Virus record (IMG/VR): IMGVR_UViG_2588253749_000004
Source of the DNA: a virus
Lineage: Duplodnaviria; Heunggongvirae; Uroviricota; Caudoviricetes
Length of the DNA stretch: 54,473 bases
Reading direction: 5' to 3' (one strand)
This document shows positions 44,799 to 54,473 of this stretch, piece by piece. Both the position numbers and the translations under genes were made by a program. Within the stretch, counting starts at the first letter, position 1. Each line of letters begins with the position of its first letter. The notes below the pieces were generated by a model. That model searched no databases, was not told the origin of the DNA, and saw nothing but the letters and a program-made list of their open reading frames with translations.

Positions 44799-45875
44799 TT
44801 ACCCCCTGAAGCCCGGCGGAATTTCGTTATCCGGTTCAGAAATATGATTCACACAACGCTGGTTGTTCGTGCCGCTTACCGGGAGCAACCAGGGGTTCTC
44901 AAAATTCCGGTCCGGTCCAAAAAACGTCGTCGCTCGCTGAACAAATTCCGTTCCCGTTTTCCCGGTAGCCGCCAAGTATCTTGCGTAACGCCTCACGCCA
45001 TCCAGCATGGCCTCTGGTGGCACCCCCTCGCGTAATCTGGCCTTCCAGGCACTGAAAGCGGATTTCTTCGGGTTTGCTCCGGCACGCAACGGGTACTCCC
45101 GCCAGACCTGTTCGAACACATCCGGATAATCCACTCGTCCCACAGACTGCCCGGTGTTTTCCGGGACTACCCGATCGGCTTCCCGCTGAATGGCGGAATC
45201 GGCTTCGGGCTGCTGCAGTTGGTGTGATTGCTCCGGCCTTGCGGTCATCACCTGCTGCACAGCGCCCGAATCGGCTTTCAGCGCATACGCTGAATCGGCT
45301 TCCGGTGTCGTGCCTGCTGGCTGACCAAGATTGACGGTCTGAACATCCCCTGCCTGGTTCGTGGCGTTTTTTACGCCATGGACCATAGTGTTTTGATCTT
45401 CTTGATCTGTATCTTTATCTGTATCTTTATCTGTCGTGACTCGTCGTGACATGTGCGTGACATTTCGTGACGCGCCGTGACAATCGCCATTTTGTTCCCG
45501 CTTTCTTTCCCTCTCTCGCTGCGCCCTCTTGCGCTCTGCAGGAGATTTTGCGGTTTGCGAAATATTGCCGTTGTCCTCTTTAAGCACCTGGCGTTTTTCC
45601 CATCCAGTGATTAAATCACCATCAAGTACCCGCCCCTGCATCGTCTGCAAAATTGAATCAATTACCTCTTCTGTCACGTCGAGCGCACTTGCCAAATCTT
45701 CTGTCGTGACATCAATGTGACCTCGCGTGACATTTCGTGACGCGCTCACCAAGAGGTGGATATACACTGCCATCACTGTTGCAATTGGCTGCCCTGACAC
45801 CCTGGCAATTGTTCGCCACTTAGGGTCATTTGGCATGTCATGCCATAATCTGAGCCAGGCGTTAGCCATACTCAC
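44799..45875 (-). CDS. Putative replication initiator (lambda O-like role) carrying intragenic iterons
   Basis: 358 aa, downstream of the ydaS/ydaT-like genes. The gene contains two arrays of CGTGAC repeats with ~10-bp phasing. Confidence 0.55.
   Translation of the reverse strand: MSMANAWLRLWHDMPNDPKWRTIARVSGQPIATVMAVYIHLLVSASRNVTRGHIDVTTEDLASALDVTEEVIDSILQTMQGRVLDGDLITGWEKRQVLKEDNGNISQTAKSPAERKRAQRERERKREQNGDCHGASRNVTHMSRRVTTDKDTDKDTDQEDQNTMVHGVKNATNQAGDVQTVNLGQPAGTTPEADSAYALKADSGAVQQVMTARPEQSHQLQQPEADSAIQREADRVVPENTGQSVGRVDYPDVFEQVWREYPLRAGANPKKSAFSAWKARLREGVPPEAMLDGVRRYARYLAATGKTGTEFVQRATTFFGPDRNFENPWLLPVSGTNNQRCVNHISEPDNEIPPGFRG
45437..45483. repeat. Iteron array 1: five CGTGAC repeats at 10-11-bp spacing (candidate ori)
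   Basis: CGTGAC at 45437, 45447, 45458, 45468, 45478; a neighbouring 9-bp tandem (tatctttatctg) lies just upstream. Confidence 0.6.
45705..45741. repeat. Iteron array 2: four (C)GTGAC repeats at ~10-bp spacing
   Basis: Copies at 45705, 45716, 45726, 45736; shares the 13-mer gacatttcgtgac with array 1. Confidence 0.55.
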
Positions 45876-45940
45876 CTCTTTTGATACCGAATCTTTTTAC
45901 TCACAAATTGCCGGAAGTGATCCGGTATGAATATTGCGAG

Positions 45941-46366
45941 TCAATGCACAGCCACAATATTTCCTGCAGGGCCACCACGATTCATCTGGTTGAAACCAGC
46001 GATCGCCACTGCGACAAAATCATCAGCGTCTCTCACCAGTCGTTCCCGCGTCTCCACTAGTTCCCGAAAATAGGCTGAGCTATGACTGCGCATTCGGGCC
46101 ACCAGCAGAGGTGGCATTGCTTTTTCGATAGCTGGTAACAACGCCTGAATTTTTTTAACCGCATCAGGGGTGTCTTTCTCCACCCAGCGGAAAATTTTCT
46201 GAGTATTGCGAGCCAGGGCTTCCGGATGGCTGTCGTCATACAGTTCCGGGAACGTCATTCCCAGCTCGAAATACGCTTTGGTAATTTTCGCAGCCGGTAC
46301 TTTTTCGCCGTCCGGATGCGCCCAGGCATTCATCGCCATGCGGATGTGTTCATGCTTGATTTTCAT
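45941..46366 (-). CDS. ydaT: YdaT-like protein (Rac-type toxic regulatory protein)
   Basis: 141 aa; recalled as Rac YdaT; operonic with the Cro-like gene. Confidence 0.75.
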   Translation of the reverse strand: MKIKHEHIRMAMNAWAHPDGEKVPAAKITKAYFELGMTFPELYDDSHPEALARNTQKIFRWVEKDTPDAVKKIQALLPAIEKAMPPLLVARMRSHSSAYFRELVETRERLVRDADDFVAVAIAGFNQMNRGGPAGNIVAVH

Positions 46367-46617
46367 GAATCAACTCCCATCAGCTTTTTCGTAGTAGTTT
46401 TATTCCTGCCAATAGTTAAAATTGCATCGGCAGAAAATAATCCGTTTGATGCAAGAGCGATTTTTTCAGCGTAATTTGTTTCGCCGGTATATTCTGTGCG
46501 AGGCAATTTTCCGTTATCCATCCATTTATAGATTGCTCTTTGGCTGACACCACAAACGTCGGCCACAACAGCAACGCGAACAGTTTTGATTACATCTTCA
46601 AGTGTTTTCTGGTTCAT
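46363..46617 (-). CDS. ydaS: Cro/YdaS-like HTH regulator
   Basis: About 84 aa from MNQKTLEDVIK...; HTH (VCGVSQRAIYKWMDNGKLP); divergent from the repressor gene. Confidence 0.7.
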   Translation of the reverse strand: MNQKTLEDVIKTVRVAVVADVCGVSQRAIYKWMDNGKLPRTEYTGETNYAEKIALASNGLFSADAILTIGRNKTTTKKLMGVDS

Positions 46618-46696
46618 ATCACCCTCACAATGTGAACTTTGAGTACATGCTATAACAGAACTGACAGTACATTCAAGAGCGAATATCATTGAACTT

Positions 46697-52342: not shown

Positions 52343-52654
52343 CTATCGTGAACCGTTCAGCGAGTCGGACATTAAGAGCGCGGTAGCCTTTTTTAATATC
52401 GTATTTTGTTCCTCCAGACGGCGAACTTGCTTTTCCAGCTCGCGGATACGTTGCTGGTCTGGAGTAATGGGTGTGGCAGAGGGCGTAATACCCTGGCGCT
52501 CTCGCCTGAGCTGGCGTACCCAGCTCTCAAGCGTGGTTGAACCGACATTCATCGCTTCACTGGCCTGTCGATATGAGTAGCCCTTATCAACAATCAGCTG
52601 TGCACATTCCAGCCTGAACTCAGGGGTGAAGGTTCGTTTGGTTTTCTTGTTCAT
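52343..52654 (-). CDS. IS3-family OrfA (HTH)
   Basis: About 103 aa from [13 protein letters not shown]; leucine-zipper/HTH. Confidence 0.85.
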
Positions 52655-52906
52655 TAAGTCACCTGTTTTGTGTTGTGGTGAGAATATCACCTTTCATCAG
52701 GTGGCCAAATTTAGTGTGCCACTACAATTCCATTCGAAGGTGAGCGCCATAATGCACTTGATGACGCCCGTTACCAGGCAAAATACGTTTCAGCTATCTG
52801 GCAAAAACTGATCCCGAGTCAGGCTGATTCTTAATGTTCAACTGTCGCCGGTTGTGACTGGTATTCTGCAACCGGCGCTCGTCTGATGTAAGAGATAAAG
52901 AAATCG

Positions 52907-53158
52907 ATGAGCAAAGTAATCATGATTGTCTCTCCCGGCAAATGGGTATCCGAAGAGCAGTTAATTGCGCTGAAAGGAATAAAAAAAGGTACGTTAAAAA
53001 AGGCCCGGGAAAAATCGTTTATGGAAGGAAGGGAATATAAGCATGTCGCTCATGACGGTATGCCATGGGATAACAGTCCATGCTTTTACAACCTGGAAGA
53101 AATTGATCGCTGGATTGAGCGCCAGGCATCAGCAAGACCAAGACGTCATCTTACTTGA
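52907..53158 (+). CDS. xis: Putative excisionase / small DNA-binding protein
   Basis: 83 aa immediately upstream of int; basic N-terminus. Confidence 0.5.
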   Translation: MSKVIMIVSPGKWVSEEQLIALKGIKKGTLKKAREKSFMEGREYKHVAHDGMPWDNSPCFYNLEEIDRWIERQASARPRRHLT

Positions 53159-53177
53159 CTAAAAGCCACACTAACTA

Positions 53178-54473
53178 ATGAGAGAAGTTGAAATGAAATA
53201 TCCGACAGGCGTGGAAAACCATGGAGGGAAATTACGTATCTGGTTTGTTTATAAAGGCGTAAGAGTCAGGGAAAATCTGGGGGTTCCTGACACAGCAAAA
53301 AACAGGCGCGTTGCAGGTGAACTACGCTCCTCTGTTTGTTACGCAATAAAAACTGGTGTTTTCGACTATGCAAAACAGTTTCCCTCCTCACGCAATCTGG
53401 AAAAATTTGGTGAGGCCCGACAAGATTTAACCATAAAAGAACTGGCTGAAAAATTTCTGGCACTGAAAGAAACTGAAGTCGCCAAAACATCACTCAACAC
53501 ATACCGTGCCGTCATCAAAAATATCCTGAGCATAATCGGTGAAAAAAATCTTGCCTCATCGATTAATAAAGAAAAATTACTGGAGGTTCGTAAAGAGCTA
53601 CTGACTGGATACCAGATCCCCAAAAGTAACTATATTGTTACACAACCAGGGAGATCGGCTGTAACTGTAAATAATTACATGACAAATCTTAACGCCGTGT
53701 TCCAGTTTGGTGTTGATAACGGTTACCTGGCAGATAACCCGTTTAAGGGGATCTCGCCATTAAAGGAATCAAGAACCATTCCGGATCCTCTTTCGCGGGA
53801 GGAATTCATCCGTCTTATCGATGCGTGCAGAAATCAGCAAGCCAAAAATTTATGGTGTGTTTCTGTTTATACTGGCGTTCGCCCTGGTGAGCTGTGTGCA
53901 CTTGGATGGGAGGACATAGATCTGAAAAATGGAACAATGATGATCAGGAGAAATTTAGCAAAAGACCGTTTCACGGTCCCAAAAACACAGGCGGGAACCA
54001 ATCGGGTCATTCATCTTATTAAGCCAGCAATCGACGCTCTCCGGAGTCAGATGACATTAACGAGACTGAGCAAAGAGCATATCATTGATGTTCACCTCAG
54101 AGAGTATGGCAGAACAGAAAAACATAAATGCACCTTTGTTTTTCAACCTGAAGTGTCAGCGAGAGTAAAAAATTATGGTGACCATTTTACCGTTGACTCA
54201 ATAAGGCAGATGTGGGACGCAGCGATAAAACGTGCCGGACTCCGCCATCGAAAATCATATCAGTCGAGACATACTTATGCCTGCTGGTCGCTGACAGCTG
54301 GTGCTAACCCGGCATTTATAGCAAACCAGATGGGCCATGCAGATGCGCAAATGGTATTTCAGGTATACGGAAAATGGATGTCTGAAAACAATAATGCACA
54401 GGTAGCTTTGTTAAATACACAGTTAAGCGAGTTTGCCCCAACCATGCCCCATAACGAAGCAATGAAAAATTAA
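53178..54473 (+). CDS. int: Tyrosine site-specific integrase
   Basis: About 426-431 aa; C-terminal catalytic region with R...HxxR...Y motifs (RHTYACW ... VYGKW); ends at the window edge. Confidence 0.9.
   Translation: MREVEMKYPTGVENHGGKLRIWFVYKGVRVRENLGVPDTAKNRRVAGELRSSVCYAIKTGVFDYAKQFPSSRNLEKFGEARQDLTIKELAEKFLALKETEVAKTSLNTYRAVIKNILSIIGEKNLASSINKEKLLEVRKELLTGYQIPKSNYIVTQPGRSAVTVNNYMTNLNAVFQFGVDNGYLADNPFKGISPLKESRTIPDPLSREEFIRLIDACRNQQAKNLWCVSVYTGVRPGELCALGWEDIDLKNGTMMIRRNLAKDRFTVPKTQAGTNRVIHLIKPAIDALRSQMTLTRLSKEHIIDVHLREYGRTEKHKCTFVFQPEVSARVKNYGDHFTVDSIRQMWDAAIKRAGLRHRKSYQSRHTYACWSLTAGANPAFIANQMGHADAQMVFQVYGKWMSENNNAQVALLNTQLSEFAPTMPHNEAMKN

Follow-up and report, generated by a model that had tools for sequence, protein, structure and literature searches.

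We argue that positions 44799-54473 of the stretch analysed here (the window, 54,473 nucleotides, IMG/VR record IMGVR_UViG_2588253749_000004) are the early half of a lambdoid prophage at the Qin site of E. coli. This half is best explained as a Qin backbone carrying a foreign immunity and replication cassette of the kind seen in phage Tritos, with a lambda-style switch. We put the probability of this explanation at about 85%. Its demonstrated part consists of homologies, module borders and sequence motifs. Its inferred part is the binding of DNA by a repressor and a Cro-like protein, the promoters and the direction of regulation. As we read it, the backbone comprises a PL-like operon (ydfA-ydfB-(variable slot)-DicF-dicB-ydfD-exonuclease-xis-int), the Qin attachment site, the tail-fibre end, ydfU/hokD and the lysis cassette. 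The cassette runs from about 41.1 to 47.4 kb and holds an AbiH gene, a 463-residue open reading frame (ORF), a DUF977/LygF gene, a replication protein, YdaT, the Cro-like protein and the repressor. The element belongs to an already catalogued sort of E. coli lambdoid prophage and is a textbook case of lambdoid mosaicism.

The window starts in a truncated ydfJ (1-1284, minus strand) and ends at the integrase stop codon (54473). In matching genomes rspB lies directly past the integrase, just as it does at the Qin position in K-12. The att core GAAATCCATAA at the 5' end of ydfJ has an attR copy 38 nt past the window end, which can be seen in strain 503025 (L002 14606-14616). The attP of Tritos unites both prophage flanks, and the limits of K-12 Qin agree with the core. 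The integrase is 99% identical in DNA and 97% in protein to K-12 IntQ, but 43% identical to IntR of Rac. We take the window to be a lambdoid prophage of about 53 kb in ydfJ, the location of Qin in K-12. An earlier sequence-only reading had called it a mosaic prophage integrated at ydfJ, and the truncated ydfJ, the att core, the rspB neighbour and the IntQ-type integrase bear this out. The gene order it gave, ydfK-pin-tfa-stf, is there too, as ynfT-ydfK-pinQ-tfaQ-stf (1888-6804).

Both K-12 loci, Qin and Rac, were aligned to the whole window at the DNA level, and their proteins were compared as well. The Qin matches (Table 1) keep the K-12 gene order and are collinear at both ends and in several internal blocks. 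Within 44799-54473, 3136 of the 9675 bases align to K-12 Qin at 95-99%. The dicBF early-left operon is present with ydfA, ydfB, DicF, dicB, ydfD and ydfE, and only ydfC is replaced. DicB is 100% and YdfD 97% identical to the K-12 proteins. YdfA is 94% identical to Qin YdfA versus 84% to Rac YdaF. The first 256 residues of the exonuclease are 96% identical to YdfE, its middle is 38% identical to RecE, and its C-terminus is a DEDD, Rv2179c-like domain. Since these identities are at the Qin level, and recT, kilR, racR and ydaS are all absent from the window, we regard the early-left operon and the integration module as Qin orthologues rather than Rac ones.

The cassette is a different matter. It has no DNA match to K-12 Qin (41122-47375) or to Rac (up to 47242). 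Tritos (OV696610.1, 46.4 kb) has it, with a DNA identity of 97.3% over 44241-47671, and the collinearity extends over the whole prophage; 7900 of the 9675 bases of 44799-54473 align to it. K-12 Qin is collinear with Tritos too, except in the immunity, replication, relBE and structural parts. Tritos shares with the window the dicBF operon, exonuclease, xis, int, attP, ydfU, hokD, the lysis cassette and most tail and head genes. It has another tail fibre (window 3420-7910) and another block of Q and moron genes. Unlike Tritos, the window has AbiH and the 463-residue ORF in the slot between hokD and DUF977, another segment in place of ydfC, and four insertion sequence (IS) elements that make it a defective copy. 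A full-text literature search found no paper on phage Tritos. Several complete genomes of E. coli isolated from human hosts, TW10573, 503025 and TK3896 among them, contain positions 44799-54473 at 100% identity, and 409 of 5426 complete E. coli genomes carry at least 80% of the segment from YdaT through Cro and the repressor to the oL-like sites. In other genomes this ydaT comes with several other cro/repressor sets, and a different ydaT accompanies this cro/repressor pair. The breakpoint lies at the cro/ydaT border, so the cassette is itself mosaic.

The proteins of the cassette do not follow those of K-12 Qin, whose DicA/DicC immunity pair is missing here. The repressor is 29% identical to DicA (E 1e-13) and 39% to the repressor of an O157 prophage. 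It resembles RacR over a 33-residue helix-turn-helix patch only (E 0.002), and a search of solved structures gave no more than a weak similarity to P22 C2. For the Cro-like protein, neither DicC nor YdaS is a significant match (YdaS E 2.4). Counted from printed alignments, the identity of YdaT is 96% to PDB 3C4R and about 86% to 8BT1; to Rac YdaT it is 33%, and to the Qin YdfX fragment 36%. Only the C-terminal 19 residues of the replication protein resemble Rac YdaU. The DUF977 gene is 84-88% identical in DNA to its counterparts in phages of the mEp460, Stx and Rac-SA53 types. The overall layout is lambdoid: the repressor and cro-like genes are divergent, the operators recur at the PL-like promoter, and the CII analogue and the replication gene follow cro.

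The motifs point to how such a switch might work. The motif TTGATT-N6-AATCAA has a single exact match in the 54 kb window, at the cro/ydaT junction. Strain 503025 (L002), Tritos and an O157 prophage have it at the same junction; K-12 Qin and Rac lack it. The 8BT1 protein is the YdaT of CP-933P, a CII analogue that binds this motif at the end of ydaS (PMC9986795, PMC8630535). The divergent region between the repressor and the Cro-like gene is 79 bp long (46618-46696). Five operator-like 17-mers cluster in this region and upstream of ydfA, where they overlap hexamers that resemble promoters. The first two 17-bp sites in each of the two control regions have the same 24-bp spacing. A PRM-like promoter (CTGACA-17-TATCAT) identified by a promoter scan ends 7 nt before the repressor ATG and would put the transcript start at the ATG, which suggests that the repressor mRNA is leaderless. 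The cI mRNA of lambda is leaderless. The same was found for paaR2 (PMC8630535). A PL-like promoter (TTTACA-17-CATTAT) overlaps the oL-like sites ahead of the ydfA-dicB operon. Homology resumes just downstream of it, to Rac from 47243 and to K-12 Qin from 47376, which means that the module border is the start of the PL-like transcript.

From this one can propose a scheme. The short CI-like repressor, probably made from a leaderless mRNA, would bind the 17-bp sites in both control regions and so shut down the two early operons and, with them, the toxic dicB and DicF. The Cro-like protein would compete for these sites. YdaT, as a CII analogue acting at its motif on the cro/ydaT border, would drive synthesis of the repressor, and the O-like replisome organiser would start replication. 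Experiments on the related CP-933P region have demonstrated this CI/Cro/CII logic (PMC8630535). The proposed control of the early operons would parallel that of DicA, which represses the dicB promoter (dicBp) in K-12 (PMC6832061). Much more tentatively, and with the odds against it, we suggest that the repressor, the Cro-like protein and the ATGwAC-N5-GTACAT sites form an experimentally uncharacterised immunity specificity, coupled here to a CP-933P-type YdaT, and that cro-repressor and ydaT are exchanged at the YdaT operator itself (46343-46380). Should recombination favour this joint, it would illustrate, in a small but concrete case, the re-assortment of lambdoid switches at regulatory sites.

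It must be noted that several points weigh against our explanation. The 17-mer consensus was derived from the same region, which makes the count of the pattern partly circular, and the third oR-like site is the only 17-mer that was found independently. The PR-like promoter of the Cro-like gene was read by eye and failed the scan rule. The repressor has no S24 peptidase (self-cleavage) domain. Rac and the O157 prophage have a loader gene after the replication gene; here there is no DnaC- or P-like gene in that place. We infer, rather than observe, that the repressor and the Cro-like protein bind the 17-mers. The comparison with CP-933P, finally, covers YdaT, operator repeats and gene content.

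That comparison bears on the rival that survives best, although we still consider it unlikely. It holds that the whole CP-933P-type immunity region (PaaR2/YdaS/YdaT) was moved into a Qin backbone. The YdaT orthologue is close to the CP-933P crystal sequence, the footprinted OM operator is at the same gene junction, here the cro-like end (PMC9986795), and a leaderless repressor start is predicted as was reported for paaR2 (PMC8630535). The divergent layout and a dicB-type operon downstream of the repressor are also common to the window and CP-933P/Sp12 of O157:H7. However, CP-933P has a paaA2-parE2 toxin-antitoxin module, and there is no such pair between the repressor and the PL-like promoter here. 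The PaaR2/YdaS repeat consensus GTTTAGTAA is absent from 46618-46696 and 47117-47413; the repeats of the two control regions are ATGwAC-N5-GTACAT instead. Without this repeat and this module the cassette is not simply that of CP-933P. The re-pairing of ydaT with other cro/repressor sets also speaks against a transfer of the whole region. One O157 locus (L008) was considered as the CP-933P (Sp12) immunity region and rejected, as it is another O157 lambdoid prophage and lacks parE2. With a YdaT 85% and a repressor 39% identical to those of the window, it is a further example of the layout and the operator.

A hybrid phage with a Qin-type late and lysis half and an immunity and early half from a Rac-type phage is less probable again, and we regard it as very doubtful. 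This was the view of the sequence-only reading, which called the immunity and early region Rac-like. The order in Rac, racR-ydaS-ydaT-ydaU, does correspond to the repressor, divergent cro-like, ydaT-family, replication and DUF977 order of the window. But this order of repressor, cro-like, ydaT and replication genes is common to Rac, Qin and CP-933P and therefore cannot single out Rac. The alignment of YdaT with its Rac namesake covers the full length, yet the protein is as close to Qin YdfX. There are patches of Rac-like DNA as well, at 47243-47401 and 47423-47550 (87%), at 48453-48617 (80%) and in the middle of the exonuclease gene relative to recE (76%). In total 1116 of the 9675 bases align to Rac, at 71-87%, compared with the 3136 that match Qin, and at far lower identity. 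Rac also matches the window at 96% DNA identity over 1526-4518, where the pin-tfa-stf-lom end is shared, and from 7261 to 47242 it has no DNA match at all.

The diagnostic genes of Rac also speak against this view. Rac is inserted at ttcA by IntR, and the window is at ydfJ with an IntQ-type integrase. Rac has RacR with YdaS and YdaT, and here YdaS has no significant counterpart and RacR is matched only through its helix-turn-helix. Rac has recE-recT and kilR; the window has dicB in the place of kilR, and the exonuclease shares with RecE only the non-catalytic middle, the recE exonuclease domain being absent. Intact Rac-SA53 shares only the DUF977/lygF gene when 44300-47300 is used as the query, and Rac lacks the YdaT operator of CP-933P. 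The gene labelled YdaF-like, which had been counted as a Rac feature, is nearer to Qin YdfA. An alignment of the whole prophage against Qin and Rac, the check that had been proposed, thus upholds the Qin-like late and lysis blocks and replaces the Rac-like early region with a Qin-type one plus a non-Rac cassette. We conclude from the alignments that this is a known kind of mosaic lambdoid prophage and that the Rac-like interpretation is not supported. As a separate observation, the leader of the PL-like operon (47243-47401), which closely follows the predicted promoter, shares 87% identity with the part of Rac that lies between racR and ydaG, and it matches K-12 Qin only from 47376. It is the one small patch of the region whose DNA match is to K-12 Rac rather than Qin.

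Two tandem prophages at the Qin site, one Qin-like and one foreign, can scarcely be entertained: the element is longer than a typical lambdoid genome, and superintegration has been invoked for reported Qin-site elements as long as 97 kb (PMC6379469), but the window has one each of integrase, excisionase, immunity region, lysis cassette and structural set, is collinear as a whole with the single Tritos genome, and owes its extra length to an IS21-family element (1954 bp), IS3 (1258 bp), IS2 and an IS66-family element.

The alignments also bear on the origin of K-12 Qin, which had been proposed to be a deletion derivative of a phage like this one. Broadly that is established knowledge, and Qin-site elements range from 11 to 97 kb across 189 strains (PMC6379469). 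K-12 Qin has in common with the window the integration site, att core, IntQ, the ynfT-ydfK-pinQ-tfaQ end, the cspI-rzpQ-rrrQ-ydfR-essQ block, ydfU, hokD and ydfA-ydfB-DicF-dicB-ydfD-ydfE, at 89-99% DNA identity. It has no head or tail genes, no replication gene, no xis and little of the exonuclease gene. Where the window encodes the repressor, the Cro-like protein and YdaT, K-12 Qin has DicA, DicC and YdfX. Nothing in the window corresponds to its NohA, YnfO, YdfO, YdfT (its Q), Rem, RelBE, YdfV, FlxA, YdfW and YdfC, even when proteins are compared. These differences imply that the K-12 ancestor had other packaging, Q, cargo and immunity modules. K-12 Qin therefore appears to be a collinear, heavily deleted relative, but the link is looser than proposed, and it is not a simple deletion derivative of this particular phage.

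Strain 503025 offers a present-day example of the kind of deletion behind K-12 Qin. It lacks 32.9 kb with tail, head, packaging and lysis genes; an IS1 (L001 35448-36530) occupies the exact point of the loss, and a truncated AraC-type gene is left. The idea that the window is collinear with 503025 was rejected for this reason, as the window retains the genes lost there.

The main consequence is correct annotation, and there is little beyond that. The appropriate label for the element is a lambdoid prophage of the Qin site with an immunity cassette of the Tritos type, made defective by IS elements, and not a Qin/Rac hybrid. Its intact dicB, DicF, ydfD and hokD are host-toxic genes that would be silenced by a repressor other than DicA. 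Findings on the control by DicA in K-12 should therefore be tested before they are applied to strains with this cassette.

Table 1. Features of the prophage and blocks of DNA identity to K-12 Qin, by position in the window
Feature	Position	Strand	Remarks
Qin match: ydfJ to tfaQ, stf 3' end	1-4051		99% DNA identity
attL core GAAATCCATAA	1276-1286		5' end of truncated ydfJ; longest exact repeat between window 1201-1400 and the sequence past the integrase gene
ynfT, ydfK, pinQ, tfaQ, 973-residue side tail fibre, lom	1888-7462		Qin/Rac-type right-arm end; alignment, TK3896 annotation
J, tape measure, protease/capsid fusion, portal, large and small terminase	7529-27806	minus	lambda-like; annotation
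IS21-family element, 1954 bp	22011-23964		inside portal gene; IstA, IstB domains
Qin match: ynfN, cspI, rzpQ, rrrQ, ydfR, holin	32988-35654		97% DNA identity
P21-family holin, ydfR, lysozyme, rzpQ	34070-35625	minus	Qin-type lysis cassette, 97% DNA identity to K-12 Qin
Q antiterminator, ydfU, small ORF, hokD with sok RNA	38769-41276	minus	
Qin match: ydfU	39164-40510		89.5% DNA identity
Qin match: hokD	40865-41121		98% DNA identity
DUF977/LygF ("Ren-like exclusion") gene	44336-44758	minus	last of early-right operon; PF06163; phrog_142
Replication initiation protein/replisome organiser, 356 residues	44799-45869	minus	O analogue; phrog_3729 end to end, E 5e-258
YdaT-family regulator, 141 residues	45941-46366	minus	PF06254; CII analogue of CP-933P/CFT073-prophage type
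Predicted YdaT operator TTGATTTTCATGAATCAA	46356-46373		across the Cro-like stop and YdaT start codons
Cro-like helix-turn-helix protein, 84 residues	46363-46617	minus	phrog_35; sub-threshold HTH_17 match
Divergent control region, three 17-bp sites ATGwAC-N5-GTACAT	46632-46705		sites at 46632-46648, 46656-46672, 46689-46705
CI-like repressor, 139 residues	46697-47116	plus	XRE helix-turn-helix; PF01381
oL-like pair of 17-bp sites	47192-47235	plus	sites at 47192-47208, 47216-47232; upstream of ydfA
Qin match: ydfA, ydfB	47376-47671		96% DNA identity
ydfA (47414-47569), 3'-truncated ydfB (47571-47672)	47414-47672	plus	Qin type, 96% DNA identity; DUF1391; PGAP
Variable slot, 517 bp	47672-48188		replaces ydfC
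82-residue predicted membrane ORF	47880-48128	minus	in ydfC slot
Qin match: DicF, dicB, ydfD, ydfE	48189-49868		95.5% DNA identity
DicF small RNA	48407-48458	plus	Rfam RF00039, 72.5 bits (gathering score 48)
dicB (48633-48821), ydfD (48818-49009)	48633-49009	plus	95.5% DNA identity to K-12
Exonuclease gene, about 823 residues if intact	49102-52834	plus	split by IS3; PF16473; phrog_2082
IS3, 1258 bp	51469-52726		inside exonuclease gene; transposase domains; 3-bp duplication relative to Tritos
Excisionase (52907-53158), intact IntQ-type tyrosine integrase (53193-54473)	52907-54473	plus	DUF1233; arm-binding and catalytic domains
Qin match: intQ	53314-54473		99% DNA identity

The tail, head and terminase genes span about 3.9-27.8 kb, and the structural region is 96.5% and 90% identical to that of Tritos. 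A full structural gene set had been claimed. The tail, head and terminase genes are indeed present, but the portal gene is split by the IS21-family element, so the set is not intact. The insertion has a 5-bp duplication and shows as a 1954-bp gap in Tritos coordinates, within the Tritos portal gene. An IS66-family element and IS2 lie between the terminase and lysis genes. Without its IS elements the prophage has about the length of Tritos. With its portal and exonuclease genes interrupted by IS elements, this copy of the prophage is defective. Strain TK3896 lacks the IS in the portal gene, and its copy may be inducible.

The lysis genes are of the Qin type. Their families are PF04971 (P21 holin S), DUF1327 and PF00959. 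Identity to the K-12 proteins is 99% for RrrQ, 92% for EssQ and, outside the lysis cassette, 91% for YdfU. The sok RNA is at 41102-41276. The Q gene (38769-39146, 125 residues, PF06530) is not of the K-12 type, as K-12 YdfT has no DNA or protein match (tblastn) in the window. We read it as matching K-12 Qin in position only. The claim that Q, ydfU, hokD, ydfR and the pinholin match Qin thus stands for ydfU, hokD, ydfR and a P21-type holin and falls for Q. The whole segment 35655-39163 is unlike both K-12 and Tritos. It encodes an AraC-type regulator, a YbgA-family protein, a Blc lipocalin and the 125-residue Q, which stand in place of cspB, cspF and YdfT.

Further cargo follows hokD. An AbiH-family gene (PF14253, PADLOC AbiH) and then the 463-residue ORF on the same strand occupy 41684-44073, the slot that holds relBE-ydfV-flxA in K-12 Qin and other cargo in Tritos. 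Exact or near-exact copies are found in E. coli, Klebsiella and Salmonella. Scans of Pfam, PHROG and PADLOC gave no family for the ORF. A GDLVTF...LVEVKTG stretch in it resembles, by eye, the PD-(D/E)xK nuclease motif, and the ORF may be an undescribed defence partner.

The segment in the ydfC slot, which truncates ydfB, has no match in K-12 or Tritos and is 99.6% identical in phage HannyBb. Its 82-residue ORF, which found no family in the same scans, has two hydrophobic stretches, lies on the opposite strand and is placed like sieB of Rac and lambda. There are also Rfam matches at 3342-3540, 33467-33852 and 52536-52658: the IS009 RNA beside tfaQ, a thermoregulator leader of the cspA type ahead of cspI, and isrC within IS3.

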